Shown here in pieces: positions 2,720 to 20,160 of a stretch of DNA of 32,000 nucleotides (positions are counted from its first letter, which is position 1; the number at the start of each line of letters is the position of its first letter). The position numbers and the translations under genes are program-made. The notes below the pieces were generated by a model. The model ran no database searches. It was not told the origin of the DNA and saw only the letters and a list, made by a program, of their open reading frames with translations. The stretch comes from an uncultured Chloroflexia bacterium. GTDB lineage: Bacteria; Chloroflexota; Anaerolineae; Anaerolineales; UBA11858. The stretch spans positions 402,136-434,135 of the forward strand of contig CAWAOV010000006.1 of NCBI GenBank assembly GCA_963783765.1, written 5' to 3'.

Positions 2720-3341
2720 TATCCTGTTCCTTGATGATTCTGGTGAAAATAAGGGGCTATGGTTTTCTATTGTACTATTTAGAGTCGATCTTCAGGCTCC
2801 TTCTTACATAAGATTTACAACCTTGAATTCAGACTGATCCCGGTAAAAAGATGACATTACTGACCAAAATTTAAGAATTGAGAGACCTCAATACCTGATT
2901 ATATTTCCCCTGATTGGTCAGCTCCGAAAGCCCTGATTTGTCTCATTTTGGCCTCTAGGTGGCCTGAGATCCGGAAATTTGCCAGATAATAAATAAATGT
3001 CACCTAAAAAGGGTGAGTTTTGTCAATCGAATCACAGTGTTAAGCTGTGAAATATAAATTGAATACTGGTATACTAAATCGTGAAAGTTTTACTAACTTT
3101 GGCTCCGTTGACGTTATCCATTACACATGAGAAATTATAACAAGTGTTGCTTGAGCAGCGCCCAGGCTGTATTAAACTGCACCCACTTTTATTGGTATCA
3201 GGTATTCAAGAAAAAGAAACCGGGTATCAGGGGTTATATTAACGCTGGATTTAGCGGAGGAGCAGCTCCCAGGGTGTCTGAAGGCGACTTGGATTGTTCC
3301 TCTTTTTGATTTAATTGTGGTATTTGCGAAAGGAGAAAAAT

Positions 3342-3755
3342 ATGGCAAGCTTGTCTCTAGAACTTCCTACGATGTACGGAGACCATCATGTACTCGAAGT
3401 CAGGCGCATATTGCTTGAATTTGAGGGTGTAACAGAAGTGTACGCCAGCTCAGGGTTTCATGTTGTTGAAGTGGAATACAACAGCAAAAAGACTCCCAAA
3501 AAAGACCTGGAAGCTGCACTTGAACAAGCAGGATATATGGGGGATTTCAAAATGGCCTTGGAACCATCTACACCGGCCAATGAAGACGTAAAAGGTGCAT
3601 ATTTCCGCCATACCGAGGCCAGCGAACAGACTGGGAATATAGTAAATTTTGAGCAGACAGTAAGAGTTCAACGCTCTCCCCTGTGGCCCTGCCCTGGTAT
3701 GGGGCCCGTAAAAACGCAAATTTTAGAAGTGGACGAGGAGACTGAAGATGGCTAA
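3342..3755 (+). CDS. Small HMA-like (ferredoxin-fold) protein lacking the CxxC motif, coupled to cooS
   Basis: The ORF opens at TTG 3315, but ATG 3342 follows AGGAGA (3331-3336). The 137-aa product has a beta-alpha-beta-beta-alpha-beta pattern like heavy-metal-associated domains, with MYGDHH where GMTCxxC normally sits. Its stop overlaps the cooS ATG by 8 nt. Confidence 0.6.
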   Translation: MASLSLELPTMYGDHHVLEVRRILLEFEGVTEVYASSGFHVVEVEYNSKKTPKKDLEAALEQAGYMGDFKMALEPSTPANEDVKGAYFRHTEASEQTGNIVNFEQTVRVQRSPLWPCPGMGPVKTQILEVDEETEDG

Positions 3756-5763
3756 ACAAAAAAGAACTATCGAGGAACTGAGTATCGATCCCGCGACCCA
3801 GGAAATGCTGCAACGCGCTGAGGATATGGGGATCAAAACTGCCTTTACCCGGGCAGATGATATGGCTCCCTGCAACATCGGCGGCGCAGGCATGTGCTGC
3901 AAAAACTGCAGCATGGGTCCCTGCCGGTTGACCAAAGACGGCCAGGTGGGCATCTGCGGAGCAACTATAGATACAATCCAGGCTCGCAATTTCCTTCGGG
4001 CAATTGCTGCTGGCGCATCAGCACACTCTGATCACGGCCGCGATATGGCCTTTACCCTCAAAGCAACCGCCAATGGGGAAGCTGAGGGTTATGTCATTCG
4101 CGATGTGGCCAAACTTCGGACCGTGGCGCGTTACTATAATATACCGGTTGATGACCGCTCGCCGAATGATGTCGCCAATGACCTGGCTGATTTGTATATC
4201 TCCCAGTTTGGACAGCAAACTGGACAGGTGGCCCCTGTAGTCAGGGCACCGAAAAAACGCCAGGAACGCTGGAAAGAAAAGGGCGTTATACCCCGTGGTG
4301 TGGACCGGGAGGTTGTTGAGGCCCTGCACCGCACCCATATCGGTGATGATCAGGATCCAAAAAATATCCTCAAACAAGGTATTCGTACAGCTTTGTCTGA
4401 TGGATGGGGCGGAAGCCTGATGGCAACTGATATCTCTGACATCCTGTTTGGCACACCTGCCCCTCTGCTTGGTGAAGCCAACCTGGGTGTTTTAAAGGAA
4501 GATTGGGTAAACGTGGTCATTCACGGCCATGAACCAACTTTGAGCGAAATGATTGTGGCTGCATCCCAAACACCGGAAATTATCGAGTACGCTAAAGCAG
4601 CTGGAGCAAAAGGTGTCAGCCTTTCTGGTATTTGCTGTACTGCCAATGAGACCCTGATGCGTCAGGGCATCCCTGCAGCTGGTAACTTCCTGCAGCAGGA
4701 AATGGCCATCCTAACTGGCGCCGTGGAAGCCATGGTAGTGGACGTGCAGTGTATTATGCAGGCCCTGGTAGGCCTGGCAGAAAATTTCCATACCAAGATC
4801 ATCACCACTTCCCCCAAGGTGAAAATCACAGGCGCTACTCATATCGAGTTTGATGAGCATAAAGCCCTGACGATAGCTAAAGACATACTTAAAAAAGCAA
4901 TTGATAACTACAAGAACCGCGGTGATATCCAGATCCCGGATTATAAATCCGAGCTTATCCCTGGTTTTTCACATGAGTACATCAATTACGCTCTGGGTGG
5001 ATCCTACCGGGCTTCATTCCGACCCCTGAATGATGCTATCATCTCAGGCCGGATCCGCGGCGTGGCAGCAGTTGTAGGCTGCAATAATCCCCGCAGCCAG
5101 CACGACTACCTTCATACGGTGGTAACCAAAGAACTTCTGAAACAGGACGTTCTGGTAGTGGAAACAGGATGTTCCGCTATCGCCAATGCCAAAGAAGGTT
5201 TGTTGATGGGCCAGGCCGGTCTGGATCAGGTTGGTCCCGGGCTGCGCGAAATCTGTGAAGCCACCGGTATGCCCCCGGTTTTGCATATGGGAAGCTGCGT
5301 GGATAACAGCCGCATCCTGACGGTTTTATCCCAGATGGTTGAAGAAGGCGGTCTGGGCGATGATATCGACCAGGTGCCTGCTGTTGGTCTGGCACCGGAG
5401 TGGATGAGCGAAAAAGCAATCTCGATTGGAACTTACTGTGTGGCTTCCGGAGCATACGTGATCTTTGGAGGCACCTCCCCGGTGGGGGGTATGCCTGACA
5501 AAGTTTCTGACAGTGATATCGTCACCAATCTAATTAGCTCTGGATGGGAAGAGGATTTTGGTGGAAAACTGGAATTCATTCCTGATCCTGCAGACATGGT
5601 CAAAGCGACTCTGGCTCATATTGATAAAAAACGGGCAGAGTTGGGTTTGATTGAATATGACCCCAGCCTGTTTGGCAAGAGCGGAGATAGGGACATGATT
5701 GCGCTGGAGAAACTTCCTCTCAAGGAACGCCGGCAAGCTATATATGGATCCGCTGTGAAATGA
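3748..5763 (+). CDS. cooS: Anaerobic Ni-Fe carbon monoxide dehydrogenase catalytic subunit (CODH of CODH/ACS)
   Basis: 671-aa ORF with GAGGAG SD. The N-terminal Cys motifs CNIGGAGMCCKNCSMGPCRL are typical of CooS/AcsA, and the length and remaining Cys/His ligand contexts are consistent. Confidence 0.95.
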   Translation: MAKQKRTIEELSIDPATQEMLQRAEDMGIKTAFTRADDMAPCNIGGAGMCCKNCSMGPCRLTKDGQVGICGATIDTIQARNFLRAIAAGASAHSDHGRDMAFTLKATANGEAEGYVIRDVAKLRTVARYYNIPVDDRSPNDVANDLADLYISQFGQQTGQVAPVVRAPKKRQERWKEKGVIPRGVDREVVEALHRTHIGDDQDPKNILKQGIRTALSDGWGGSLMATDISDILFGTPAPLLGEANLGVLKEDWVNVVIHGHEPTLSEMIVAASQTPEIIEYAKAAGAKGVSLSGICCTANETLMRQGIPAAGNFLQQEMAILTGAVEAMVVDVQCIMQALVGLAENFHTKIITTSPKVKITGATHIEFDEHKALTIAKDILKKAIDNYKNRGDIQIPDYKSELIPGFSHEYINYALGGSYRASFRPLNDAIISGRIRGVAAVVGCNNPRSQHDYLHTVVTKELLKQDVLVVETGCSAIANAKEGLLMGQAGLDQVGPGLREICEATGMPPVLHMGSCVDNSRILTVLSQMVEEGGLGDDIDQVPAVGLAPEWMSEKAISIGTYCVASGAYVIFGGTSPVGGMPDKVSDSDIVTNLISSGWEEDFGGKLEFIPDPADMVKATLAHIDKKRAELGLIEYDPSLFGKSGDRDMIALEKLPLKERRQAIYGSAVK

Positions 5764-5777
5764 AGGAGATAAGATAA

Positions 5778-8700
5778 ATGTCGAAATACATTGCTACCCG
5801 AGCCGTCCGCGGCGCAAATGCCCTTGTCTACGAAGCCGAGGCAATGCTTTTTAAAGCCCTGGCTGAAAAGGGGCCGGAAACAGTCGTAGAATTTCCCAAT
5901 ACAGCTTATTACCTGCCCTTGATCTACGCCATGACTGGTGAAAAGATTGCTACATTGGGTGATATTCCCCCTCTCCTTGAGAAGGCTCGCAGTCTGCTTC
6001 ATCCCATTCCGTCCGATGATAAATGGACCCCGTATCTTGGAGAAACCCTGGACAGCGGCATGGCGACGTTAATTGCTGCTGAAATCATCGAAGCTATCCG
6101 GACTGTCTACGGCCTCCAACCTGAGATGTATCCGAATATCGAACTGGCAGGCGGAACTGAGTATGGAGACCGCGATTTTGGGTTGACCGGCCGCTTAAAC
6201 GGACCGATCGATGATATTCAGCTTCGCTCCTGGGGTATTCAGCTGGTTGACGGCAGGATGCCTGGATTTGCGGCGATTGTTGGCGCGGCCAAGTCAAATG
6301 AAGTGGCCGTGAAGATCGTCCGTGAACTGCAGCAGCGGAATATCCTGACATTCCTGTGCGGCAACGTCAACGGCAGGAGCATCATTGACCAGCTTGTTGA
6401 AGAAGGTGTGGAACTGGGATATGACACCTACACAGTGCCGTTCGGAACAGATACCCTGAGCGCGATCTACGCCCTTGGATTCGCCTCGCGGTCCGCTCTG
6501 ACTTTCGGCGGCATTGATGCCGGCGAGGCCAGGAATATCCTTAATTACAACCGTGCCCGCGTTTTTGCCTTTGTGCTGGCGCTGGGTGAAGTCGATGATC
6601 TAAAATATGCCGCAGCGGCCGGTGCCATCAACTTTGGCTTCCCGGTCATTGCGGATACGGTAATCCCGGAGATCCTACCCACTGGTGTGACCACCTATGA
6701 ACATGTGGTCAGCATGCCATTCGATCAAATCGAAGGCAAAGATGACATGGAACGCGCAACTGCTCTGGTGCAGAAATGCATCCAGATCCGCGGTGTAAAG
6801 ATCAAAATCACAGATGTGCCCGTTCCTGTTCCTTACGGTTCAGCCTTTGAGGGCGAAGTTGTTCGCCGGGCGGATATGCGGGTTGAGTTTGGTGGGAAAA
6901 ACTCCCGCTCCTTTGAATACCTTTTTATGTCTGATATGGAAGAAATTACCGATGGCAAGGTAACGGTAGTTGGACCTTCCTTTGAGGATCTTGAAGATGG
7001 CGCCTCGATGGATATGGGTGTTGTAGTCCAGGTGGCCGGCCGCGAAATGGAAATGGACTTTGAACCGGTGCTGGAACGTCAGATCCATGACTTTGTCAAT
7101 GGCGCTTCCGGTATTCAACATATCGGCCAGCGCGACATTGTCTGGTGCCGGATCGCAAAATCCGCTTCTGAAAAAGGATTCAGTCTGGAACATTTTGGAA
7201 AGATCATCCATGCCCGCCTCCATTCCGATTTTGGCGCGGTGTTGGATAAAGTTGAAGTGACCATCTACACTGAAAAAGACGATATTGATAAATGGCTGGC
7301 AAAAGCCCGCGAGGCTTATGACTTCCGCAACAAACGTCTGGCGGATATGACTGATACTTCAGTGGATGTGTTTTACTCCTGCACCCTGTGCCAGAGTTTC
7401 GCTCCGGACCACGTTTGTGTGGTCAGCCCAGAACGTCTTGGATTGTGCGGTGCCTACAACTGGCTGGACTGCAAAGCATCCTTCAGTATCGATCCTACTG
7501 GACCTAACCAGCCCATCCAGCTGGGAGAGGTTTATGACGAGGAAGTGGGATACTGGGAAGGTACTATTGACTATACCAAGTCTGCTTCTCACGGCGTAAT
7601 CGAAAAAGTATCCATGTACTCGATCATGGAAAATCCCATGACAGCCTGCGGCTGTTTTGAGGCCATATTAATGTACATCCCCGAAGTTGAGGGTGTGATT
7701 GTAGTCAGCCGTGAAGACACTGGAATGACACCCATGGGCATGAAATTCAGCACCTTGGCCGGCATTGCCGGCGGTGGTGTGCAAACACCCGGTGTGATGG
7801 GTGTGGGCAAGTATTATATGCTCAGTCCTAAATTCATCTCTGCAGACGGCGGATTTAAGCGAGTTGTCTGGATGAGCAAGAATATTAAAGACAGCATGCA
7901 GGGAGAATTCGCTGCAGTCGCCGAACGTGAAGGTATTCCTGATTTGATCGATAGAATTGCCGACAGCGAGTCCGTGACAACCGTTGAAGAACTTCAGCAA
8001 TGGGTTAAGGATAAGAATCACCCAGTCCTGGAAATGCCCACTATGCAGAGGGAAGAGAAAGAATTGGATATTCCCGAAGCAGTGCAGGAGAGCAGTGAGG
8101 TTATCGCCCAGGCAGAGGCAGTGATTGCCAAAAAGACCCCCGAGACCCCAGAACCTGCAGCAGCCGCACCACCACCAGCACCAACCCCGGCTGCTCCAGT
8201 TCCATCAATACCAGCAGGTGTAACAGGAGATGGTCCAGAAAAGGCCGTCAACATGCTGCGCCGGGCTCTGATGGCAGCTTTGGCTGAATTGGGCGGCATT
8301 GAAGGAATGGAAGATTTCCAGCTGCCGGCAATGCCTTCGGCCCCTGCGGCAGCCCCCGCTTCGGCCCCTGCGGCACCAGCGCCCGTCGTTTCTGATGAAC
8401 CCTGGCTGCCGGCTGGTACAAAAACAAAACTCTCCAAGGAGAAATGGGATGGTGTTGTCAGAGAGATTACCCTGGGCGCAACAGCGGCCGAGGGTGGCAC
8501 TCGATCCCATACCGTCACAATTGGTGGCTCCACCGCCATGCCCTATATGCACTTTGAAGGACAAACGCCCAATAAACCGGTGATCGCGATCGAAATTCAG
8601 AGCCGCAAACCAGATGATTGGTCTGATCTGCTGATGAAAGCCTGGGGCGATGCAATGAATGATCCTGGTGATTGGGCCAAGGCAGCCGAACAGGCAGGCG

Positions 8701-9380
8701 CAGAAGTTCTTTATCTGAAACTGAACCTCACAGACGCTGATGGTAATCCGACAACCAAAGAACAGGCTGTTGAAGCAGTTGATAAAGTTCTCAAGGCCAG
8801 CGGATTACCCCTGGTAGTCTTTGGACCCGGCCAACCGGAACCGGATAATGACCTTCTGGTAGAGATATCCACCAAATTTAAGGGCGAAAAATTGCTCCTG
8901 GGTGTATGTGAAGACAAGAATTACCGCACTATAGTGGCCTCGGCCATGGCAGATGGACAGTTGGTTGTGGCTCGCACCGCGATGGATGTGAACCTGGCCA
9001 AGCAGCTCAATATTCTAATCACGGATATGGGTTTGTCGGCTCAGAATATCGTTATGGATCCCACAACGGGAGCCCTGGGTTACGGATTTGAATATGGTTA
9101 TTCCGTAATGGAACGCCTCAGGATCGCAGCTTTACAAGGTGACTCAATGACCCAGTTCCCGATGCTGGTAACTCCTGGCGAGGAATGCTGGAAGGCCAAA
9201 GAATCCAAAGTTGGCCATGATGTGCCGGAGTCCTGGGGTGATTGGGAAGCCCGGGCTCTCGCCTGGGAAACTACCACGGCCATCATGTTGGTTGAATCCT
9301 GTGCCGATCTGATTGTCTTGCGGCACCCAGAAAGTGTCAGACGGACCAAAGAAGCCATTGATGATTTGATGACTGGATAA
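5778..9380 (+). CDS. acsB/acsD: Fusion of acetyl-CoA synthase AcsB (aa 1-756) and corrinoid Fe-S protein small subunit AcsD (aa ~886-1200) via a Pro/Ala-rich linker
   Basis: The N-terminal 756 aa are collinear with Moorella AcsB, including the A-cluster ligands (FYSCTLCQSFAPDHVCVVSPERLGLCG and MTACGCFE), and end at HPVLEMPTM where AcsB normally stops. The C-terminal 315 aa match AcsD/CdhD (GGTRSHTVTIGG, LYLKL, NLAKQLNILITDMGL, DPTTGALGYGFEYGYSVMERLR, LRHPESV). It is a single uninterrupted frame. Confidence 0.9.
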   Translation: MSKYIATRAVRGANALVYEAEAMLFKALAEKGPETVVEFPNTAYYLPLIYAMTGEKIATLGDIPPLLEKARSLLHPIPSDDKWTPYLGETLDSGMATLIAAEIIEAIRTVYGLQPEMYPNIELAGGTEYGDRDFGLTGRLNGPIDDIQLRSWGIQLVDGRMPGFAAIVGAAKSNEVAVKIVRELQQRNILTFLCGNVNGRSIIDQLVEEGVELGYDTYTVPFGTDTLSAIYALGFASRSALTFGGIDAGEARNILNYNRARVFAFVLALGEVDDLKYAAAAGAINFGFPVIADTVIPEILPTGVTTYEHVVSMPFDQIEGKDDMERATALVQKCIQIRGVKIKITDVPVPVPYGSAFEGEVVRRADMRVEFGGKNSRSFEYLFMSDMEEITDGKVTVVGPSFEDLEDGASMDMGVVVQVAGREMEMDFEPVLERQIHDFVNGASGIQHIGQRDIVWCRIAKSASEKGFSLEHFGKIIHARLHSDFGAVLDKVEVTIYTEKDDIDKWLAKAREAYDFRNKRLADMTDTSVDVFYSCTLCQSFAPDHVCVVSPERLGLCGAYNWLDCKASFSIDPTGPNQPIQLGEVYDEEVGYWEGTIDYTKSASHGVIEKVSMYSIMENPMTACGCFEAILMYIPEVEGVIVVSREDTGMTPMGMKFSTLAGIAGGGVQTPGVMGVGKYYMLSPKFISADGGFKRVVWMSKNIKDSMQGEFAAVAEREGIPDLIDRIADSESVTTVEELQQWVKDKNHPVLEMPTMQREEKELDIPEAVQESSEVIAQAEAVIAKKTPETPEPAAAAPPPAPTPAAPVPSIPAGVTGDGPEKAVNMLRRALMAALAELGGIEGMEDFQLPAMPSAPAAAPASAPAAPAPVVSDEPWLPAGTKTKLSKEKWDGVVREITLGATAAEGGTRSHTVTIGGSTAMPYMHFEGQTPNKPVIAIEIQSRKPDDWSDLLMKAWGDAMNDPGDWAKAAEQAGAEVLYLKLNLTDADGNPTTKEQAVEAVDKVLKASGLPLVVFGPGQPEPDNDLLVEISTKFKGEKLLLGVCEDKNYRTIVASAMADGQLVVARTAMDVNLAKQLNILITDMGLSAQNIVMDPTTGALGYGFEYGYSVMERLRIAALQGDSMTQFPMLVTPGEECWKAKESKVGHDVPESWGDWEARALAWETTTAIMLVESCADLIVLRHPESVRRTKEAIDDLMTG

Positions 9381-9471: not shown

Positions 9472-10803
9472 ATGGCTCTAACCGGAATTCAAATTTACAA
9501 GCTGCTCCCTCAGACAAACTGTAAGGAATGTGATTTCCCTACCTGCCTGGCCTTTGCCATGAAATTGGCTGCCAAACAGGTTGAACTAGCTAAATGTCCT
9601 TATGTAAGTGAGGAATCAGCAGCACAACTGGCTGAGGCTGCTGCACCGCCAGTCCGTCCCATAACGATCAAATCAAATGGGCATGAAGTGAAAGGCGGAA
9701 ATGAAATTGTTATGTTCCGCCATAATAAAAGATTCTTCAGTCCCCCCGGGATTTTTGTCCGGGTTTATGACGATCAATCGGCCGATGATATCAAGGCCAA
9801 GGTTAAACCAGTCTCTGATTATGTAGTGGATTATGTTGGCATGGATCTGACAATGGGCGGGATCGCCATCCAGGCACGCGGAGGAGATTTTGGTGCCGCA
9901 GTGAAAGCTGTCCGAGAGGTCAGTACAATTCCCCTGATCCTGATTGCTCCTCCGGAGGTATTAAAGACCGGTTTGGAAAGCCTGGGCGCTGATGATATCC
10001 CGCTTTTATGCAGCGCGACTGCGGAGAATTGGGAAAAAATGGCCGCCCTGGCAAAGGAATATAATGCTCCCCTGGCAGTTGAAGCAGGCAATATCGACAC
10101 CATGGTCGATCTGGTGGAGAAGCTGGAAAGCAAAGACCTAAAGGATTTTGTGCTGTCACCTACACAAAGAACCCTGATTGGCACTTTAACCGCCAATACC
10201 ACCATACGGCGAATGGCTCTGAAGGAAAATTACCACCAGCTAGGTTTCCCGATCATCAACTTCCCGGGCGATGTGGGTGACCCTGCCCGCGAGCTGACTC
10301 TGGCAATGCAAGCCATTGGCAAATACAGCAGTTTTATTGTCATGGATACCTTTGATCCCGCCACCGCTTATTCACTATTGGTGCTGCGAGCAAATATCTA
10401 CACTGATCCCCAGGAACCCATTCAGGTCACTCCGGGAATTTACGAGATCAATAACCCTGGCCCCGAGGATCCTTTCCTGGTCACTACGAACTTCAGCATC
10501 ACTTACTTCAGTGTTGCCAATGAAGTGGAAAGCATGGGCATACCTGCCTGGCTTCTGGTAACAGACTCGGAAGGTATGAGCGTGCTCACAGCCTGGGCGG
10601 CTGGCAAATTTGATGCCGAAATCATCGCCAAGGACGCCAAGCGATTCAATGCGGCTGAAAAGGTGACCAAGAAACGCATTGTGCTGCCAGGTCATACGGC
10701 GGTATTGTCCGGTGAACTTGAGGAAGAACTTCCAGATTGGGAAGTAAAAGTCGGCCCCAAAGAGGCTGTTGACCTGCCCGCATTCATGAAAGAAGCACTA
10801 TAG
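9472..10803 (+). CDS. acsC: Corrinoid iron-sulfur protein large subunit
   Basis: 443-aa ORF. The N-terminal 4Fe-4S motif has C-x2-C-x4-C-x16-C spacing (CKECDFPTCLAFAMKLAAKQVELAKCP), followed by TIM-barrel and corrinoid-binding regions typical of AcsC/CdhE. Confidence 0.9.
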   Translation: MALTGIQIYKLLPQTNCKECDFPTCLAFAMKLAAKQVELAKCPYVSEESAAQLAEAAAPPVRPITIKSNGHEVKGGNEIVMFRHNKRFFSPPGIFVRVYDDQSADDIKAKVKPVSDYVVDYVGMDLTMGGIAIQARGGDFGAAVKAVREVSTIPLILIAPPEVLKTGLESLGADDIPLLCSATAENWEKMAALAKEYNAPLAVEAGNIDTMVDLVEKLESKDLKDFVLSPTQRTLIGTLTANTTIRRMALKENYHQLGFPIINFPGDVGDPARELTLAMQAIGKYSSFIVMDTFDPATAYSLLVLRANIYTDPQEPIQVTPGIYEINNPGPEDPFLVTTNFSITYFSVANEVESMGIPAWLLVTDSEGMSVLTAWAAGKFDAEIIAKDAKRFNAAEKVTKKRIVLPGHTAVLSGELEEELPDWEVKVGPKEAVDLPAFMKEAL

Positions 10804-10909: not shown

Positions 10910-12832
10910 ATGGCAACCAATTATTCAGTAAAATTTGATATTGCCCAGGAACCGGTTGAAGTTCCGGCAGGAACCCTGTTATCGGATGCTGCCGAAAAAG
11001 CAGGCATAGAGATCAACCAACCGTGTGGAGGTCAGGGGCGTTGTGGGCAGTGTGCTGTTCAGGTGACATCTGGAAATGTGCGGCGCCGGTCTACGATGCG
11101 TTTGTCGGCAGAGGATGTTGAAGATGGCTACGCTATCGCCTGCCAGACAATTATAGAAGGGGATTTGACCGTTGTCGTCCCACCGCAAGAGAAGATCCAG
11201 CAGCGGTTGACCACGGGCCAGTCCGCGGCTGATGTCACAGTCCCGGAAGGTTATGACCATCGTAAGGACCAATCTGTCCACCGAATTCATGTCACATTAA
11301 AACAGCCCTCGATGGAAGATCAAACCAGTGACTGGGCTCGATTAAAGACTGCCTTACTTCTAGAGACTGGGTTGACGAATATATCGATCTCCCTGCCTAA
11401 TTTACAGAAACTACCGGGTGTGCTGCGGGATGGGGACTGGAAAGTATCCCCGGTTTTGTATGTGGAAGATGGAATGGAAGCAGGAGGTTTTGGTGAAGTG
11501 ATAGATCTGCTGCCGGGGTTGGTTTCCCCCGATACACCCCTCTGGGGAGCAGCAGTGGATATTGGCACCACCACAGTCAAAGTGATGCTGGTGGATCTGA
11601 TCAGTGGCGAGCCACAAGGCCAGGCAACTGAATATAATGCCCAGATCGCCCGGGGAGAGGATGTGATCTCCCGGATCATATTCGCTGGAAAAGGGGAGGG
11701 TGATAAAACCCTCCGGTCTCTGGTGTTGGAGACAATAAATGAGCTGCTTGAAAGGGCCTGCCAGAGAGGAAAATCATGCCCGGACAGGATCTACAAAACC
11801 ACCATCGCCGGAAACAGCACCATGACCCACCTTTTACTGCAGATACCTCCCTCAAGTATTCGGCTGGCGCCATTTATCACGGTAGCCAATCACCTACCAG
11901 TGATGACAGCCCTGGAATTGGGTTTAAGAACCCATCCGGAAGGTAAAGCGATCTGTCTGCCCGGGGTTGCCAGTTATGTAGGGTCGGATATATCAGCGGG
12001 CGTGTTGTCTTCTGGTATGTCAGAAACAGAAAAAGTCACCCTCTTCCTCGATGTGGGCACCAATGGAGAAATGGTCCTGGGATCAAAAGAATGGCTGGTT
12101 ACCTGCGCCTGTTCGGCGGGCCCGGCCTTTGAAGGTGCAGGAGTGCTGCATGGTATGCGGGCTACAACCGGTGCAATCGATGAGATCTGGATCAATGAAG
12201 AAACCAAAGAAGCATCCTGGCGGGTGATCGGGGAGGGGAAACCAAAAGGATTGTGCGGCAGTGCTTTGATCTCCCTGCTGGCTGAGTTATTAATGACCGG
12301 AGTGATCAACAAAAGCGGTCGATTTGACTTCTCTTTGGATTCGAAACGGGTTCGAAAAGGCTCCCACGGCGGTGAATATGTGGTCTGCTGGGCGGATGAA
12401 AATGAAATTAATGAAGATATCATCCTGACCGAAGTGGATATTGATAATTTGATGCGAGCAAAAGCAGCAATTTTCGCGGGGTTTTCAGTTTTGGGCGATA
12501 GCGTAGGAATTCCCCTGGAATCTGTTGAACAAGTCTTGATTGGCGGTGGTTTTGGCCAATATATCAACGTCGAAAAGGCAGTTCAAATAGGCTTGCTGCC
12601 AGATATGCCCTGGGAACGTTTTAAGTTCCTGGGAAATACTTCCCTCAAGGGAGCTTATCTAGCTTTGCTTTCCATAAAAAACCGGCAGGAGATATCGGAG
12701 ATCGCTAACCGGATGACCTATATTGAACTTTCTGCAGATAACCGCTTTTTTGACGCATTTACTTCAGCAATGTTTTTACCCCACACTGATATGACTCTCT
12801 TTCCATCTGTGAAGATCGGTGGGGATAAATAA
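10910..12832 (+). CDS. acsV: Reductive activator of the corrinoid Fe-S protein (RACo/AcsV): 2Fe-2S ferredoxin domain plus ASKHA ATPase
   Basis: 640-aa ORF with an N-terminal plant-type ferredoxin motif (CGGQGRCGQCAV...C) and ASKHA phosphate and adenosine motifs (VDIGTTTVKV, LDVGTNGEMVLG, IGGGFGQY). Confidence 0.85.
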   Translation: MATNYSVKFDIAQEPVEVPAGTLLSDAAEKAGIEINQPCGGQGRCGQCAVQVTSGNVRRRSTMRLSAEDVEDGYAIACQTIIEGDLTVVVPPQEKIQQRLTTGQSAADVTVPEGYDHRKDQSVHRIHVTLKQPSMEDQTSDWARLKTALLLETGLTNISISLPNLQKLPGVLRDGDWKVSPVLYVEDGMEAGGFGEVIDLLPGLVSPDTPLWGAAVDIGTTTVKVMLVDLISGEPQGQATEYNAQIARGEDVISRIIFAGKGEGDKTLRSLVLETINELLERACQRGKSCPDRIYKTTIAGNSTMTHLLLQIPPSSIRLAPFITVANHLPVMTALELGLRTHPEGKAICLPGVASYVGSDISAGVLSSGMSETEKVTLFLDVGTNGEMVLGSKEWLVTCACSAGPAFEGAGVLHGMRATTGAIDEIWINEETKEASWRVIGEGKPKGLCGSALISLLAELLMTGVINKSGRFDFSLDSKRVRKGSHGGEYVVCWADENEINEDIILTEVDIDNLMRAKAAIFAGFSVLGDSVGIPLESVEQVLIGGGFGQYINVEKAVQIGLLPDMPWERFKFLGNTSLKGAYLALLSIKNRQEISEIANRMTYIELSADNRFFDAFTSAMFLPHTDMTLFPSVKIGGDK

Positions 12833-12896: not shown

Positions 12897-13820
12897 ATGT
12901 ACATCATTGGAGAGAATATTCATATCATATCCCCGAGTGTCAAGAAGGCGCTGGCTGATCGTGATGCCGAATTCTTCAAAAAATCGGCGATTCAACAGGT
13001 TGAGATGGGTGCCAGCGCGGTTGACCTGAATCTGGGAAGACAGAAACACGAATGGGAAGAGATCTTTCCCTGGGTAACCAAAATCGTTCAGGATGTTGTT
13101 GACGTCCCGCTTTGCATTGACAGCACCAATTTGGCTGGCATTGAAGCTGCCCTGAAAGTGATCACCAAAGCCAGGCCTATTATCAACTCCACATCAGCGG
13201 AAGCCGAGCGGTTGGAGCAGGTTCCTCTGCTGGCAAAGAAATATGACGCCCAGCTGATCGCCCTGACCCTTAAGAAAGAAGGTATTCCTGTGGAAGCTGA
13301 TGAAAGGGTAAATATCGCCCTGGAATACTTGATCCCCAGAGCTATGGAAGTAGGCATGGAGATGCCAGATTTGATCATTGACCCCTTGGTTCTGACTGTC
13401 TCTGGATGCCAGGAATACTGTCCGGAATTGATCGAAGCCGTTCGGACAATTAAGTATGCCGGTGATCCTCCCCCCTCGATTTCGGTTGGTTTATCCAATG
13501 TGTCCAATGCTGTGCCGGAAGAAACCCGCCCGATCCTCAACCGGGTTTATCTGGCCATGTTAATGGGCGCCGGGTTGGAAATGATGATTGCTGACCCATT
13601 TGATGAAAAACAGAACGAAGTCATCCGCATCATCGAAGAGCGGGATGAAGGAACATCCCTGGGCAAACTTTATTTGAAATTACATGATGCCACCGAGGCG
13701 ATGGGCGAGATCACCAAGGCGGATATTGATGAAAGTGATCCCGAACAGGTCGCTGTCTGGAAGTCCGTTCAGGTGCTTCTGAATAAAGTGATTTACGCCG
13801 ATTCTTTCCTGGAACAATAA
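12897..13820 (+). CDS. acsE: Methyltetrahydrofolate:corrinoid/iron-sulfur protein methyltransferase
   Basis: 307-aa ORF with GAGGAGG SD. It is collinear with Moorella MeTr (IIGENI, LCIDSTN, INSTS, IDPLVL, GLSNVS, ADSF), with a roughly 40-aa insertion near the C-terminus. Confidence 0.85.
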   Translation: MYIIGENIHIISPSVKKALADRDAEFFKKSAIQQVEMGASAVDLNLGRQKHEWEEIFPWVTKIVQDVVDVPLCIDSTNLAGIEAALKVITKARPIINSTSAEAERLEQVPLLAKKYDAQLIALTLKKEGIPVEADERVNIALEYLIPRAMEVGMEMPDLIIDPLVLTVSGCQEYCPELIEAVRTIKYAGDPPPSISVGLSNVSNAVPEETRPILNRVYLAMLMGAGLEMMIADPFDEKQNEVIRIIEERDEGTSLGKLYLKLHDATEAMGEITKADIDESDPEQVAVWKSVQVLLNKVIYADSFLEQ

Positions 13821-14020: not shown

Positions 14021-15376
14021 ATGTCTGAGGAAAACATCAATATTGAAGAATTGCTGGAAAAAGCAAAAAAACCAGCAGCAGATGCGTTAAAACTACATCC
14101 CTTTTATAAGGGAAAGATGGAAACAACGTTGAAATGCACTGTGCGAAGTATCGATGATTTTGCAATCTGGTATACCCCGGGCGTTGCTGCACCCTGTCGG
14201 GATATTTATCAGGACCCCGAGATGGTTTATCAGCATACCAGCAAGGGAAATACCATTGCCGTGATCAGTGATGGAACACGGGTGCTTGGTCTTGGCGACA
14301 TCGGTCCCAAAGCTGGCCTTCCCGTGATGGAAGGCAAGGCCCTCCTGTTCAAATATCTGGGCGGTGTAGACGCAGTTCCGATCATGCTTGATACTAAAGA
14401 TCCTGATGTTTTTATTGAGACGGTTCTGCTGCTGCAGTCCTCTTTTGGAGGAATAAATTTAGAGGATATTGCCCAACCCAAATGTTTCCGAATCCTGGAT
14501 GAGCTGCGGGAGAAGTGTGAGATCCCCGTCTGGCACGATGATCAGCAGGGAACAGCAACTGTAACCCTGGCGGGATTGATGAACGCCTTGAAAGTTGTGG
14601 GAAAAAAGAAGGAGGAGATCCAGATCACCTTTATTGGTTCTGGCGCTTCCAATGTGGCGATTTCTCGCTTGATCTACAGCTGGGGTGTGGATCCGGGTAA
14701 GTGCTTCATGGTGGATAGCAAAGGTATCCTTGGCACCCATAGAGATGATATTAAATCAAAAAAGGATCAATTTAAGGAAAAGTGGCATTTGTGCCAGATC
14801 ACAAATAAAGAAGGCCGCCAGGGTGGAATTCCAGAAGCTATGAAAGGCGCGGATGTAGTGATAGCTCTCTCCAAACCCGGTCCTGATGTGATCAAACCAG
14901 AATGGGTTAAGTCCATGAATCCCGACGCGATCATTTTCAGCTGCGCCAATCCCATTCCCGAGATCTGGCCCTGGGTTGCAAAGGAAGCAGGTGCCAGGGT
15001 TGTTGCTACTGGACGGTCTGATTTCCCCAATCAGGTAAACAACTCACTGGGTTTCCCGGGAATTTTCAGGGGAGTACTGGATGTGAGAGCATCAACGATC
15101 ACAGATGAGATGTGTTTTGCAGCGGCTGAAGCCCTGGCTGACCAGATAGGCGATCAACTTGATGAAGAACATCTTCTGCCCACGATGGATGATTGGGAAG
15201 TGTTTGCTAAAGAAGCAGCGGCGGTAGGCATGAAAGCCCAGGAACAGGGTGTTGCCAAATTAGAGCGCACCTATGATGAGCTTCTGAAAAGCGCTACTGA
15301 AGTTATAAAACGATCCCGGGACCTGACATCCCTGATGGAGAAAAAAGGCTTCATTCCAGCCCCACCGGAAGATTAA
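14021..15376 (+). CDS. NAD(P)-dependent malic enzyme (oxaloacetate-decarboxylating malate dehydrogenase), short form
   Basis: 451-aa ORF. The N-terminus HPFYKGKMETTLKC...WYTPGVAAPC, the ISDGTRVLGLGDIG motif and the Rossmann segment FIGSGASNVA are typical of prokaryotic malic enzymes. Confidence 0.9.
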   Translation: MSEENINIEELLEKAKKPAADALKLHPFYKGKMETTLKCTVRSIDDFAIWYTPGVAAPCRDIYQDPEMVYQHTSKGNTIAVISDGTRVLGLGDIGPKAGLPVMEGKALLFKYLGGVDAVPIMLDTKDPDVFIETVLLLQSSFGGINLEDIAQPKCFRILDELREKCEIPVWHDDQQGTATVTLAGLMNALKVVGKKKEEIQITFIGSGASNVAISRLIYSWGVDPGKCFMVDSKGILGTHRDDIKSKKDQFKEKWHLCQITNKEGRQGGIPEAMKGADVVIALSKPGPDVIKPEWVKSMNPDAIIFSCANPIPEIWPWVAKEAGARVVATGRSDFPNQVNNSLGFPGIFRGVLDVRASTITDEMCFAAAEALADQIGDQLDEEHLLPTMDDWEVFAKEAAAVGMKAQEQGVAKLERTYDELLKSATEVIKRSRDLTSLMEKKGFIPAPPED

Positions 15377-15968: not shown

Positions 15969-16148
15969 GTGTCAAAGAAACTATTTTTTATTTTAATCTC
16001 TCTGCTCATGATCAGTTCCTTCGTTTTGGGCGCCTGCGCCCAGACTCCAGCCCCTGTCGAAGAGGTTGAGGAAGTCGAAGAAATGGAGGAAGTAGAAGAA
16101 GTAGGAAATGGCAGAAGAAGAGGAAATGGCAGAAGAAGTTATGGGTGA
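15969..16148 (+). other. Orphaned 5' part of the binding-protein gene: lipoprotein signal peptide plus acidic tether, out of frame with the body
   Basis: GTG 15969 follows AGGAGGAG. It encodes SKKLFFILISLLMISSFVLGAC (lipobox LGAC) and then EEVEEVEEMEEVEEV. After about 16104 the frame degenerates to GNGRRRGNGRRSYG-stop, while the acidic tether continues in the +1 frame. Confidence 0.65.
16103..16138 (+). repeat. Exact tandem duplication of an 18-nt unit
   Basis: AGGAAATGGCAGAAGAAG occurs at 16103-16120 and again at 16121-16138. It encodes EMAEEE/EMAEEV in the body frame. Confidence 0.9.
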
Positions 16149-17745
16149 AAAGATTCCCCTGACCCTTTACTACATGCCAGTAACCCGCTTCTATTATCCC
16201 AGTCCGAAAGAAATCGGCGAAGCTATGGCTGCCGATCTGGCGAATGCCGGATTTGACGTTCAGCTTGAACTGGCTGGCGACTGGCCCACCTACCTTGGTT
16301 TGCGCCGTGAGGGTAACCTCGATGGTCTCTACCAACTTGGTTGGGGTGGTGACAATGGTGACCCCGACAACTTCTTGAACTACTTCTTTGGATTTGCCGG
16401 TGCTGACAAGGTTGGAGACGATCCTTCAGCATGGGTAAAGAGCCCAGAAGCCCGGGAAGGTTGGTATGCCAATACTGATGTCGCCTACTTGCTCTATCAG
16501 GCGTCCATCACACCGGATCAGGCTGCAAGAGAGGCTATGTACAAGCAGGTCGAGAATCTACTTCACGATGATGTTGCCCGCCTCTGGGTAGCTCACAACA
16601 ATACTCCCCTGGTTTTCTCCAGTTTGGTCAGCGGTTATGTGCCGCAGCCTGTTGGAGCCGACTACTTTGAAGGTGTGACCGTTGAAGGTTCTGACACCTT
16701 TGTATTTGGTCGCGGCGGTGACTCCGTTCAGTTGGATCCCGCAGTTGTAACTGATGGTGAGAGCTTCCGTGTTACCGGACAGGTTCTGGAACCACTCTAT
16801 CAGTATGAACCGGGTTCCACCAAACCAATCCCCGCACTGGCTGAATCTTGCACCCCGAATGCAGAAAGCACTGAATGGGTATGTGCTCTTCGCCAAGGTG
16901 TGAAATTCCACGACGGAACAGACTTCAATGCTGCCGCAGTGGTCTTTAACTTTGAACGCCAGCGCTTTACGTCTCATCCCCAACACTATGAAAGCCAGGT
17001 GTATGAGTATTACGAATACATGTGGGGCGGCCTTGATGATGCGAGCATAATCACCTCAGTTGAAGCTATTGATGACTACACAGTGAAATTCGTGCTTGCA
17101 GAACCCCTGGCTCCGTTCTTGGCTAACTTGGCTATGGATATCTTTGCGATTTCCAGCCCAACAGCAATGGAAGCCGCTGGTGAAGACTATGGTCTTCCCT
17201 CCAATGGCGCAGTGGGAACAGGCCCCTTCAAGTTTGTGGAATGGGTAGAAGGCGATCACATCACAGTTGAAGCAAATGCCGACTACTGGGGTGGCGCGCC
17301 TGGTGTAGAGCAGATTGTGTTCAGAGTCATTGCTGATGACTCCGCTCGCTTCCTGGCTTTGCAGGCTGGCGATATCCAGGGTTTTGAACAGGCCGTGGTA
17401 GAAGATCTGGTCACTGCTGAAGCCGCTGATGACCTTTATGTTATGACCAGACCAGCCCTCAATACCGGCTATCTGGCCTTCAGCTACAAGATTGTTGAAT
17501 TCCAGGATGTCCGAGTTCGTGAGGCACTTGCCCACGCCATCAACCGTGAAGGATTAATCGAAAACTTCTACGGTGCCTATGGTGAAGCTGCAACCAACTT
17601 CCTGCCCCCGTTGATCTGGGGCCATGATAATACTATCGTGGATTGGGAATATGATCCTGAACTGTCACGCTCGTTGCTGGCAGAAGCTGGATTCCCTGAT
17701 GGACTCAGCGAAGTTACCATTGACCCCGCCTTTGTGACCGAGTAA
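16108..17745 (+). CDS. ABC transporter substrate-binding protein, family 5 (DppA/OppA-like), circularly permuted and lacking an in-frame signal peptide
   Basis: 545-aa ORF. Residues 15-193 match the C-terminal third of DppA-type proteins (GWGGDNGDPDNF ... YFEGVTVE). Residues 194-545 match the mature N-terminus through the middle (DSVQLDPA, LAESCTPNAESTEWVCALRQGVKFHDG, GTGPFKF, DPELSRSLLAEAGFPDG). Confidence 0.8.
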   Translation: MAEEEEMAEEVMGEKIPLTLYYMPVTRFYYPSPKEIGEAMAADLANAGFDVQLELAGDWPTYLGLRREGNLDGLYQLGWGGDNGDPDNFLNYFFGFAGADKVGDDPSAWVKSPEAREGWYANTDVAYLLYQASITPDQAAREAMYKQVENLLHDDVARLWVAHNNTPLVFSSLVSGYVPQPVGADYFEGVTVEGSDTFVFGRGGDSVQLDPAVVTDGESFRVTGQVLEPLYQYEPGSTKPIPALAESCTPNAESTEWVCALRQGVKFHDGTDFNAAAVVFNFERQRFTSHPQHYESQVYEYYEYMWGGLDDASIITSVEAIDDYTVKFVLAEPLAPFLANLAMDIFAISSPTAMEAAGEDYGLPSNGAVGTGPFKFVEWVEGDHITVEANADYWGGAPGVEQIVFRVIADDSARFLALQAGDIQGFEQAVVEDLVTAEAADDLYVMTRPALNTGYLAFSYKIVEFQDVRVREALAHAINREGLIENFYGAYGEAATNFLPPLIWGHDNTIVDWEYDPELSRSLLAEAGFPDGLSEVTIDPAFVTE

Positions 17746-17804
17746 CCATCTTAGGAAATAGAAATTCCTGAAAGTAAAAGGTTAGGTCAATCTGTTGTAA
17801 AAAA

Positions 17805-17836
17805 AGGAGGGGCGTTAACCCGCCCCTCCTTTCTGT
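17805..17836 (+). terminator. Attenuator-type hairpin between binding-protein and permease genes
   Basis: Perfect 10-bp GC-rich stem AGGAGGGGCG / CGCCCCTCCT with a 6-nt loop, followed by TTCTGT (a weak U-tract). Confidence 0.5.
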
Positions 17837-17858
17837 AAGGAATTATTGGAGGTCTTCT

Positions 17859-18911
17859 TTGACTCGCTATATTATTCGACGAATAATCTCTGTGATCCCC
17901 ACTTTAATTGGGGTCACCTTTGTAATCTTCATGTTCCAGCGCTTGATCCCTGGAGATCCGGCAATTGCTATGCTGGGGGAGCATGCGACCGATGAGAGCA
18001 TCGAACGGATCCAAGAGCAATTGGGTCTCAATCGCCCTCCGTTCCTGGATCGGGAAGCACTGGCGGAAGGAGACCTGGCTGGTTTTTTTGACAGTCAATA
18101 CATTAATTACATGGCTCGTCTCAGCCGGTTAGATCTGGGAGATTCAATTCACCGGCGGATCCCTGTGCTGGAAACACTAAAATTGAGATTCCCGGCAACG
18201 GTTGAGCTATCGTTACTTTCCATGATCATCGCCGTAATGGTAGGTATACCGGTAGGAATAATTTCCGCTTCCCGCAGGAACTCCCTGATTGACAGCGTCG
18301 CCATGGTGAGTTCTCTTGTGGGAGTTTCAATGCCCATATTTTGGCTGGGATTAATGGAAATCATGCTCTTTGCTGTGTTCTTAAAATGGCTTCCTGCTGG
18401 TGCTCGATTAAGTACCGGGTTTGAAATACAGGGAATCACTAATTTATACTTGGTTGATAGTCTAATAACTGGCAATTGGGCAGGATTTAAAGATGCTCTG
18501 TCTCATATTATTATGCCCGCAGTGGCCCTGGCAACCATTCCAATGGGGATTATTGCTAGAATGACGCGCTCCAGCATGTTAGATGTGCTCCAGGAGGATT
18601 ACATCCGAACTGCCAGGGCAAAAGGATTGGGAGGAAGAAAGGTGCTGTTTAGGCATGCCCTTAAGAATGCCGCCTTACCGGTAGTCACAATCGTTGGTCT
18701 CCAGGCAGGCACATTATTGGCAGGAGCTGTCTTAACCGAAACAATATTTTCCTGGCCTGGGATTGGCCGTTGGGTTTATGATGCCATTCTTGGCCGGGAT
18801 TACCCCATCGTGCAGGGTGGCACCTTGTTAATTGCGCTGATATTTGTTGGTGTAAATTTGATTGTAGATATTTTATATGCACTGCTGGATCCAAGGATCC
18901 GGTATAAATAA
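17859..18911 (+). CDS. Peptide/nickel-family ABC transporter permease (DppB/OppB-like)
   Basis: 350-aa ORF with a TTG start 6 nt after GGAGG. The N-terminus is typical (YIIRRIISVIPTLIGVTFVIF), and the C-terminal half carries an EAA-like region (YIRTARAKGL). Confidence 0.9.
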   Translation: MTRYIIRRIISVIPTLIGVTFVIFMFQRLIPGDPAIAMLGEHATDESIERIQEQLGLNRPPFLDREALAEGDLAGFFDSQYINYMARLSRLDLGDSIHRRIPVLETLKLRFPATVELSLLSMIIAVMVGIPVGIISASRRNSLIDSVAMVSSLVGVSMPIFWLGLMEIMLFAVFLKWLPAGARLSTGFEIQGITNLYLVDSLITGNWAGFKDALSHIIMPAVALATIPMGIIARMTRSSMLDVLQEDYIRTARAKGLGGRKVLFRHALKNAALPVVTIVGLQAGTLLAGAVLTETIFSWPGIGRWVYDAILGRDYPIVQGGTLLIALIFVGVNLIVDILYALLDPRIRYK

Positions 18912-18920
18912 GGAAGCTTT

Positions 18921-20150
18921 ATGGCACAGATCAATCCGGAAGAGTTTATAGTAACTGATTTTGCGGTTCGGGAACATCGCTCCTTATGGGGTGATGCCTG
19001 GCGGCGGTTGATATCCAGCAATACAGCCCGATTGGGGATGTTTATTGTGGTCCTTTTTGTATTCTCGGCAACTTTTTCGCATTATTTTTGGAAGTATGAA
19101 CCCAAAAAAGACCTGGACTATTCCTTAAAACTCAAAGCGCCCAACCTGGTGGTGACAGAAGAAATCCCCTCTATCCATCCCTTTGGAACTGATAAATTGG
19201 GACGGGATATCTTTCGAAGAGTTATTCATGGCGGCTGGAATTCCTTACGGGTTGGTATTGTGGCTGTCGGGATCTCGTTATTATTTGGAGGGGTAATTGG
19301 TTTGCTGACCGGTTTTTATGAATCCACTACCATGACAACAGTGGAGCGGATTGTGTTATACGGCATAACGGGTTTCTTGCTGGGTATGTTGGCTGCCTGG
19401 ATTGCGAACCAGTTTCTCCAACTGGTTATTTTTACTGTCTTAGGTTTATTGGCTGGTTATTTCGAAGGATTGTGGGCAGGAAAATATTACCGGGTGTTAT
19501 TTTTTGGAGTCCTGGGAGCCCTGCTCAGTTTTGGACTTGCTCTGTTTGTTGGACTGTCTGTCGCGCTAATTTGCGGTTCACTGGGTTTGTTAGCAGGATT
19601 GCTGTTATCCGTGACTTTGGATGGAAGGTTTTTCTCGAATGTAATGATGCGAGTGATGGATATGATTTTATCCTTCCCTGGTTATTTATTGGCAATCGCC
19701 ATTGTTGCCTTTTTAGGACCTGGCCTTAGTAAGGGTATGATTGCCATCGGTGTTGTTGGAATACCGGTTTATGCCCGACTAACCCGATCAGCGGTCTTAT
19801 CTGTGGTGAATAAGGAGTACATCCTGGCAGCCCATTCCGTGGGAGAATCCCATGGCCGGATCATCTTCAGGCATATCACCCCCAATATTCTTTCCCCGAT
19901 TATTGTACAAACGACCATGGGATTGGCAAATGCGATCCTGTCCGCGGCAGCTCTTGGTTTCCTGGGATTGGGCGCCATTCCACCGGAACCAGAATGGGGA
20001 GCTATGTTGGGTGATAGCTACCGATATTTAACCAGCGGTGCCTGGTGGGCGGTTTTATTCCCCGGCCTGGCAATTATGCTGAGTGTGCTGGGCTTTAATT
20101 TACTGGGAGATGGCCTCCGCGATGCGCTAGATCCTAAACTGCGGACGTAG
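18921..20150 (+). CDS. Peptide/nickel-family ABC transporter permease (DppC/OppC-like) with ~100-aa hydrophobic insertion
   Basis: 409-aa ORF. The flanks are collinear with DppC (HPFGTDKLGRD...GLLTGFY // MMRVMDMILSFP...LGDGLRDALDPKLR). An extra segment spans aa 134-234. Confidence 0.9.
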   Translation: MAQINPEEFIVTDFAVREHRSLWGDAWRRLISSNTARLGMFIVVLFVFSATFSHYFWKYEPKKDLDYSLKLKAPNLVVTEEIPSIHPFGTDKLGRDIFRRVIHGGWNSLRVGIVAVGISLLFGGVIGLLTGFYESTTMTTVERIVLYGITGFLLGMLAAWIANQFLQLVIFTVLGLLAGYFEGLWAGKYYRVLFFGVLGALLSFGLALFVGLSVALICGSLGLLAGLLLSVTLDGRFFSNVMMRVMDMILSFPGYLLAIAIVAFLGPGLSKGMIAIGVVGIPVYARLTRSAVLSVVNKEYILAAHSVGESHGRIIFRHITPNILSPIIVQTTMGLANAILSAAALGFLGLGAIPPEPEWGAMLGDSYRYLTSGAWWAVLFPGLAIMLSVLGFNLLGDGLRDALDPKLRT

Positions 20151-20160
20151 GAAAAATGAT

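Follow-up and report, generated by a model that had tools for sequence, protein, structure and literature searches.

In bacterial systems of the Moorella type, the corrinoid iron-sulfur protein (CoFeSP) docks transiently on acetyl-CoA synthase (ACS), and for this reason the methyl hand-over from the corrinoid protein to the A-cluster in the Wood–Ljungdahl pathway is hard to capture structurally. The genes for ACS (acsB) and for the large and small subunits of CoFeSP (acsC and acsD) follow the order B-C-D in Moorella, and the two CoFeSP subunits make up a stable heterodimer, as solved structures from Moorella and Carboxydothermus show. In the archaeal acetyl-CoA decarbonylase/synthase (ACDS), the corresponding genes run cdhC-cdhD-cdhE, a beta-delta-gamma order. 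For the ACDS of Methanosarcina acetivorans, a crosslink-supported model described in a preprint (PMC13370988) places the small-subunit barrel of CdhD in direct contact with the A3 domain of ACS. The same work found experimentally that a Leu-zipper helix (Leu50/57/64) in the disordered N-terminal region of CdhD forms hexa- to octameric coiled coils, which scaffold the 2 MDa ACDS, and stated that this region is absent from bacterial AcsD (PMC13370988). Here, a window of 32 000 nucleotides (nt; the whole stretch of DNA that was analysed, from contig CAWAOV010000006.1 of an uncultured Anaerolineales bacterium) is described in which AcsB and AcsD are encoded as a single polypeptide, AcsB::AcsD. The fusion is a real, conserved and recurrent variant of a known enzyme system, and is neither rare nor a new enzyme.

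AcsB and AcsD are encoded as one polypeptide

The translation of the fused open reading frame (ORF) contains no internal stops in its 1200 codons, and the polypeptide has a mass of about 131 kDa, as estimated from its length. Pfam placed four domains on this protein, namely CODH_A_N (amino acids [aa] 22–108), CdhC (349–502), ACS_CODH_B_C (514–756) and CdhD (897–1183). The product is a complete bacterial AcsB, a linker and a full-length AcsD on one chain (Table 1). The initial annotation, which was made from the DNA sequence alone, had proposed such a covalent fusion, with ACS/CdhC-type and CdhD-type models expected on one polypeptide; the single open frame and the scans with Pfam and NCBIfam bear this out. 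Its coordinates, domain boundaries and description of the linker were also correct when compared with the ORF, the domain scans and alignments to Protein Data Bank (PDB) sequences.

The AcsB part matched NF040764 (CODH_ACS_al_bet) at 946.5 bits against a cutoff of 800, with aa 11–756 covering model positions 2–704 of 705. Domain A1, which docks carbon monoxide dehydrogenase (CODH), is present (CODH_A_N, E=6.2e-29), and the alignment to NF007078 begins at aa 1. The A-cluster ligands are C535, C538, C547 and C557 for the [4Fe-4S] cluster and the Cys-Gly-Cys motif C624-G625-C626 for the Ni-Ni site; they are invariant across 98 fused homologues and lie at a constant offset of +29 from the Moorella positions C506/509/518/528/595–597. 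The closest PDB matches were AcsB of Moorella and of Carboxydothermus, ahead of CdhC (9c0s_E), and residue 726 of Moorella AcsB (729 aa) aligned at about aa 754 of the window protein. Model coverage and PDB alignment thus support the earlier description of a complete AcsB of bacterial type that ends as in Moorella.

For the AcsD part, the 313-position delta-subunit model NF003376 scored 355 bits (cutoff 280), with aa 883–1198 covering positions 3–312, and residues 8–319 of Moorella AcsD (4djd_D, 323 aa) aligned to aa 888–1199 (E=7.5e-88). This coverage agrees with the full AcsD/CdhD-like domain that had been placed from about aa 886. AlphaFold2 (AF2) gave the barrel a predicted local distance difference test (pLDDT) score of 85–95. 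The Moorella-type model WLP_AcsD (NF040759) gave 246.5 bits against a cutoff of 430. Judged by these profiles, the AcsD part is a genuine AcsD, yet lies outside the narrow Moorella-type subfamily. PDB chain lengths confirm that AcsB and AcsD are separate chains in Moorella and Carboxydothermus.

Table 1. Positions of the fused gene, its parts and the neighbouring acs genes in the window
Feature	Coordinates	Strand	Details
HMA-like protein	3315..3755	+	146 aa; Pfam HMA, E=1.1e-5
AcsA, Ni-CODH catalytic subunit	3748..5763	+	671 aa; bacterial type; TIGR01702
Fused AcsB::AcsD ORF	5778..9380	+	1200 aa plus stop; ATG start; ORF listing, translation, Pfam, NCBIfam
AcsB part, domains A1 (CODH docking), A2 and A3	5778..8045	+	aa 1–756; NF040764, PDB matches
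Linker	8046..8432	+	aa 757–885, 129 aa; Ala/Glu/Pro-rich, mostly disordered
Linker helix 1	8097..8129	+	aa 774–784; consensus DVIAQAEAVI; AF2 helix 774–784
Linker helix 2	8235..8297	+	aa 820–840; consensus RAExAVxxLRRALxAALAELGG; AF2 helix 820–837
'PDxPW' motif directly ahead of barrel	8391..8405	+	aa 872–876; SDEPW in window
AcsD part, TIM-barrel small subunit of CoFeSP	8433..9380	+	aa 886–1200 plus stop
AcsC, CoFeSP large subunit	9472..10803	+	443 aa; NF003195; Pfam FeS plus CdhD
AcsV/RACo, reductive activator of corrinoid protein	10910..12832	+	640 aa; Pfam Fer2, RACo_linker, Raco_middle, RACo_C_ter
AcsE-like methyltetrahydrofolate:corrinoid protein methyltransferase	12897..13820	+	307 aa; Pfam Pterin_bind

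The fusion is the norm across Anaerolineales

Among 5.8 billion proteins searched, at least 120 clusters (90 % identity level) of about 1170–1256 aa have the same four Pfam domains and 69–100 % identity to the window protein, the named ones coming from metagenome-assembled genomes (MAGs) of Anaerolineales, Anaerolineae or Chloroflexota. A scan of one genome per species yielded 76 loci, on each of which the operon components were mapped by tblastn, and linker statistics were taken from about 50 Anaerolineales/Chloroflexota loci where the linker could be delimited on both sides. It is 381–801 nt long there, a multiple of 3 and free of stops, with the exception of two long-read MAGs where it is out of frame. 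Every Anaerolineales-type locus encodes the HMA-like protein, AcsA, AcsB::AcsD, AcsC, AcsV and AcsE, usually followed by malic enzyme. AcsB::AcsD is the norm across Anaerolineales. A survey of related lineages, as proposed in the initial annotation, thus recovered the same fusion in the same operon from about 50 Anaerolineales/Chloroflexota genomes, and the rarity that had been supposed was not borne out, the fusion being standard in Anaerolineales and present in a second lineage across many phyla.

That the fusion is an artefact of assembly or sequencing, produced by a lost stop codon or by read-through of an intergenic spacer, is vanishingly improbable. The frame of the fused gene is broken in a few long-read MAGs (L045, L046, L048 and L069), but several long-read MAGs of that set, for example L017 and L045, are frameshifted in many of the genes at the locus, as indel errors predict. 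One stop-free frame, with lengths that vary by multiples of 3, is found in the approximately 50 independent genomes, which derive from many studies and assemblers; the protein clusters near 1200 aa and the conservation of linker helix 2 despite synonymous variation likewise argue against an artefact, which these comparative data exclude. The frameshifted assemblies (L017, L045, L046, L048 and L069) are all named 'uncultured Chloroflexia bacterium MFD...'. In such assemblies the fused gene may split into at least two ORFs, hiding the fusion from automated surveys.

The linker carries conserved helices

From its N-terminal end, the linker consists of an acidic stretch, helix 1, a Pro/Ala spacer, helix 2, a further Pro/Ala spacer and a D/W motif. 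An alignment of 98 fused proteins underlies the conservation figures and the AF2 model. Across these homologues the linker is 113–181 aa long and is composed of 19.5 % Ala, 14.7 % Glu and 14.3 % Pro. Mean column identity was 0.82–0.88 in the AcsB domains and AcsD and 0.35–0.47 in the linker outside three islands, which are separated by Ala/Pro/Glu-rich stretches of variable length. AF2 modelled the linker at pLDDT <50 as coil with exactly two helices, and the features listed for it in the initial annotation (acidic stretch, Pro/Ala runs and an amphipathic helix) are all present. Conservation of at least 90 % was found for I776, A779, E780 and A781 in helix 1 and for V824, L827, L831, A834, L835, A836, E837, L838 and G839 in helix 2, whose hydrophobic residues (V824, L827, L831, A834/L835 and L838) fall on the a and d positions of a heptad. 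Helix 2 lies about 45 residues ahead of the AcsD barrel, with a Pro/Ala stretch intervening, while D873 and W876 of the motif next to the barrel are invariant among the 98 sequences.

Codons of helix 2 were compared in 39 distinct loci, where the residues are kept and most conserved sites use 3–6 synonymous codons. This pattern, together with the stop-free in-frame loci, indicates that the linker is translated and under purifying selection, which for helix 2 acts at the protein level, and agrees with the earlier opinion that intergenic read-through is unlikely. The linker is a flexible leash that bears conserved short helices and is more than a featureless spacer. Because they are conserved, the helices need an explanation beyond flexibility, and most likely both helices, which are amphipathic, and the D/W motif serve for docking or self-association and are not mere spacer. 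The linker alone matched no NCBIfam family, and its only PDB matches were low-complexity ones to the mitoribosomal protein mS40. In a Ca. Promineifilaceae MAG (L042, positions 5381–6181) the linker has about 267 aa, twice the usual length, and an extra Ala/Gln/Glu-rich, probably helical segment (LLQQAQEAALRQSVALQKAAAEALRQAQLL) precedes the usual helix 2.

A second fused lineage and unfused relatives

With the linker plus AcsD as query, HMMER was run exhaustively on 1.84 billion representative proteins and returned mostly standalone AcsD/CdhD of 300–330 aa and archaeal-type CdhD of 380–470 aa with N-terminal extensions, along with several fusions. Among the latter are two clades of AcsB::AcsD, that of the window protein (F1, representative P0122) and F2 (representative P0151, 1209 aa). 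With P0151 as query, at least 120 further clusters of 1148–1319 aa with the same four domains were found. Named sources of F2 are Desulfovibrionaceae, Phycisphaerae, Tepidisphaerales, Lentisphaerae, Victivallales, Spirochaetota, Aminicenantes, KSB1, Chitinivibrionales and a 'Deltaproteobacteria bacterium', and the phylum labels include Planctomycetota and Lentisphaerota; all retrieved F2 names are metagenomic or unclassified. An F2 locus (L080) encodes CooC, AcsA, AcsB::AcsD, AcsC, AcsV and a DUF3786 protein. F2 linkers, which are 109–200 aa long, have an acidic start, a Pro/Ala stretch, a long amphipathic helix with the rough consensus EIVREIIGTLSEKFLGE, another Pro/Ala stretch and, ahead of the barrel, the short conserved motif 'AAERL..K.F.I'. 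The two clades share the four-domain architecture, the A-B::D-C-V gene order and a linker of similar length and plan, and differ in sequence, with identity to the window protein of about 52 % in AcsB and 42 % in AcsD. A common origin of the F1 and F2 linkers was rejected (hhalign probability 0.1 %).

The nearest AcsD outside F1 is an unfused protein (P0123, 324 aa) with 65 % identity to the AcsD part of the window protein. Its contig (L077) encodes AcsA, AcsB, a CBS-domain protein, AcsD, AcsC, AcsV, AcsE and two CooC-like proteins, and the AcsB on it has 766 aa, ends in HPALVMEPIF and is 74 % identical to that of the window. In neighbour-joining trees of the AcsD and AcsB domains, which are rough, carry no support values and sample unfused sequences sparsely, F1 grouped with its unfused sister and F2 formed a separate clade, with unfused sequences between the two. 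Because of this arrangement F2 probably arose through a separate fusion event, and the trees suggest at least two independent AcsB::AcsD fusions. The same gene order in the second lineage, combined with a non-homologous linker of the same layout, points to recurrent selection for tethering. The initial annotation had remarked that acsD is moved ahead of acsC. The order is indeed B-D-C, but it is shared by the unfused L077 and by the F2 locus; judged from gene order in these relatives, it predates the F1 fusion and is therefore not a fusion-specific rearrangement.

The gene of the 171-aa CBS-pair protein in L077 lies between acsB and acsD (positions 4846–5361), where the fusion has its linker. 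Derivation of the linker from this gene was rejected, as family scans gave no CBS signal in the linker and identified the L077 protein as an ordinary CBS pair. Standalone proteins consisting of linker and AcsD (P0121, P0125, P0132, P0137, P0140 and P0194) were also discounted, being mostly N-terminally truncated fragments of fused proteins. AcsD barrels are fused to other partners too (P0154, P0164, P0170, P0180 and P0129). P0154 (1038 aa) has an N-terminal region that is methylenetetrahydrofolate reductase-like (sequence reading only), a long helical repeat-like region and then AcsD. In other arrangements AcsD precedes 450–800 aa (proteins of 764 and 1122 aa), follows about 540 aa (845 aa) or is joined to about 200 aa (521 aa). 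Within Wood–Ljungdahl gene sets, AcsD seems to enter into fusions frequently.

A probable leash for the corrinoid protein

As a whole, the locus is best explained, in our view with good probability, by a covalent leash keeping the corrinoid protein beside the A-cluster. Tethering, stoichiometry and the role of the helices are read here from the fusion, its conservation, the partner genes and the linker elements. As in Moorella, AcsA would bind domain A1, so that the core would be (AcsA)2(AcsB::AcsD)2, and AcsC would bind the AcsD barrel non-covalently and bring the corrinoid. The linker would leash the entire CoFeSP to the C-terminal A3 domain, the modelled contact of CoFeSP during methyl transfer. 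Such a tether would fix the stoichiometry at 1:1 and keep CoFeSP locally concentrated next to the A-cluster, and its length would let CoFeSP swing out to meet both AcsE, the methyltransferase, and AcsV, the activator. The initial annotation had described the corrinoid protein as tethered; AcsD is linked, but the corrinoid sits on AcsC, so that the methyl carrier would be tethered indirectly. Fused domains are often interacting partners, and for this reason the fusion supports the A3 domain and the AcsD barrel as functional partners. Because of the A3–barrel contact in the archaeal model, the fusion would join two surfaces modelled as meeting for methyl transfer (PMC13370988). By this analogy, a tethering role for the linker is reasonable.

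Several results weigh against the leash. The linker is far longer than is needed to bridge A3 and AcsD, and simple proximity leaves this length unexplained. The full-length AF2 model is weak (mean pLDDT 63, predicted template modelling score 0.40) and shows no confident docking of the linker helices, although its AcsB part was poorly modelled from a shallow alignment and the model is uninformative on domain docking. Profile tests did not support a homologous relationship between the linker and the archaeal CdhC or CdhD tails, and the resemblance is kept as a positional analogy. The linker and the linkers of two other subclades gave no cdhC or cdhD match in NCBIfam at E≤10, and what aligned with the CdhC tail was low-complexity acidic sequence. 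Against the N-terminal extensions of 15 archaeal-type CdhD proteins, a hidden Markov model of helix 2 reached no more than 3.9 bits, and hhalign paired helix 2 with the archaeal N-terminal helix at a probability of 0.5 % (E=0.12, not significant). Finally, cleavage of the linker or internal initiation may yield free AcsD, which is compatible with the sequence.

In the first of two alternatives, the fusion serves translational coupling only, and equimolar synthesis is followed by cleavage in the linker to give conventional AcsB and AcsC/AcsD. The long linker is disordered and probably accessible to proteases, and the closest relative (L077) uses separate genes. Conserved helices and an invariant D/W motif would be unexpected in a discarded segment, the operon showed neither a recognisable protease site nor a processing protease, and recurrent independent fusion with a similar linker layout suggests that the linker is functional. 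We consider this coupling very unlikely.

The second alternative, which is conceivable although the balance of evidence makes it unlikely, is that the linker is mainly a scaffold, in which helix 2, and possibly helix 1 as well, would make a coiled coil between molecules and the tethering of a single CoFeSP would be secondary. The Ala-rich, highly conserved helix 2 has a clean a/d heptad, occurs in a longer version of about 30 aa in another subclade and has a counterpart in the long central amphipathic helix of the independent F2 lineage. Its position and layout are those of the archaeal CdhD helix, for which hexamers or octamers were found experimentally (PMC13370988), and the best local hhalign pairing sets it on that helix. 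This pairing is the insignificant one given above, and the low scores of the helix 2 model also count against a scaffold, as do the low AF2 confidence at helix 2 and its shortness in the window's subclade, where only about 18 residues are few for a coiled coil to be stable. Position, heptad and Pro/Ala stretch would thus make helix 2 and the CdhD N-terminal helix a functional analogy only. A covalent leash, with helices that would dock or self-associate, remains the reading that we favour.

There is a bolder reading, which we regard as doubtful: bacteria would at least twice independently have built a covalent ACDS-like system, whose conserved central linker helix self-associates to form a standing CODH/ACS/CoFeSP supercomplex that channels CO and methyl groups. 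If this were true, Moorella-style transient docking would be just one among several ways in which bacteria solve the problem, and the fused proteins could serve as stoichiometrically locked natural samples for trapping the methyl-transfer state.

Neighbouring genes

The genes around acsB::acsD encode the expected partners (Table 1). AcsA scored 605 bits with the bacterial model TIGR01702 CO_DH_cata (cutoff 478) and 83 bits with the archaeal cdhA model (cutoff 781). The partner of the AcsD domain, AcsC, is encoded next downstream (NF003195, 509 bits, cutoff 306) and is the actual corrinoid carrier. AcsV/RACo gave 644 bits with NF040756, under the cutoff of 800, and the AcsE-like protein gave 226 bits with NF005719 and 211 bits with NF040758, both under cutoff. 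On these matches, a complete set of carbonyl-branch enzymes is encoded, with ACS and the CoFeSP small subunit as one chain.

The gene of the HMA-like protein overlaps the start of acsA by 8 nt and is kept upstream of AcsA in essentially all Anaerolineales loci. In this protein the sequence 'MYGDHHV' (GDHH) replaces the usual metallochaperone motif MxCxxC/CxxC. No gene for a CooC/CbiA-type Ni-insertion ATPase was found in the 32-kb window, and CooC-like genes are present in L077 and L080. The HMA-like protein might be an alternative metal chaperone for CODH/ACS. A malic enzyme gene (14021–15376, +) follows acsE, a position kept in most Anaerolineales loci, which suggests a link of acetyl-CoA/pyruvate metabolism to the acs operon. 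About 700 nt downstream of this cluster lies an Opp/Dpp/Nik-type ABC transporter (16108–22136, +) that comprises two permeases, two ATPases and an SBP_bac_5 binding protein. The last was sub-threshold for the nickel NikA model (150 bits, cutoff 393), and the transporter could be a nickel or an oligopeptide importer. Elsewhere in the window, a 220-aa ORF (929–1591, +) had no Pfam match, and a 377-aa ORF (23425–24558, +) has a dephospho-CoA kinase domain confined to its first 184 or so residues.

Comparison with known systems

No published description of an AcsB-AcsD fusion was found in full-text searches, although an earlier mention is possible, the survey of Adam et al. 2018 lying outside the scope of the search; 'fused' in the papers that were found concerned unrelated contexts. 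A 2026 preprint on ACS phylogeny covers prismane-CdhC fusions, not AcsB::AcsD. Databases already contain hundreds of the fused proteins, annotated merely as 'subunit alpha/beta' or 'acetyl-CoA synthase'. Because fused proteins of 1150–1250 aa carry only these names, surveys that count acsD/cdhD as a separate gene could wrongly score the pathway as incomplete in fused lineages. The natural fusion offers a ready-made 1:1 complex for cryo-electron microscopy and kinetics. It is suggested that uncultured Anaerolineales, Planctomycetota, Lentisphaerota, Aminicenantes and Spirochaetota may run an ACDS-like, pre-assembled enzyme. Given the structural work on CoFeSP docking, a recurrent fusion with conserved linker helices is mildly surprising and should be useful to Wood–Ljungdahl specialists.

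The linker had been likened in the initial annotation to the swinging arms of 2-oxo-acid dehydrogenase E2 proteins. The likeness holds for composition, both being Ala/Pro-rich, charged and extended flexible segments that keep, or in the fusion would keep, a mobile carrier module near active sites. It does not extend further: the Pfam matches of the 1200-aa protein are limited to the four ACS/CdhD families and include no domain of the lipoyl, PSBD or E2 catalytic kind, the linker has two conserved helices and the D/W motif, and the tethered AcsD itself lacks the substrate-bearing corrinoid.

With archaeal ACDS, the window shares the beta-delta-gamma gene order, an acidic tail behind domain A3 of ACS and, by analogy of layout, an amphipathic helix with a Leu heptad that a Pro/Ala stretch separates from the delta-subunit barrel. 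In ACDS, CoFeSP is permanently held with ACS non-covalently, through disordered tails and the CdhD coiled coil, whereas in the window the connection is covalent. Archaeal CdhC is without domain A1, which the window protein has, and archaeal ACDS has a CdhA-type CODH, whereas that of the window is of the bacterial AcsA type. No CdhB-type match was found among the window ORFs scanned. By these sequence criteria, the window system is not an archaeal ACDS.

The closest counterparts are the bacterial CODH/ACS and CoFeSP systems of Moorella thermoacetica, Carboxydothermus hydrogenoformans and Clostridium autoethanogenum, in which, as in the window, all components are of bacterial type and AcsC, RACo and the methyltransferase are encoded alongside. 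The three-domain AcsB has identical A-cluster ligands and the AcsD barrel aligns end to end. The differences lie in gene order, B-D-C in the window against B-C-D in Moorella, and in chain organization, with AcsB (729 aa) and AcsD (323 aa) as separate chains in those systems and as one chain with a 129-aa linker in the window. Components and chemistry are conventional, and the architecture is common in metagenomes.

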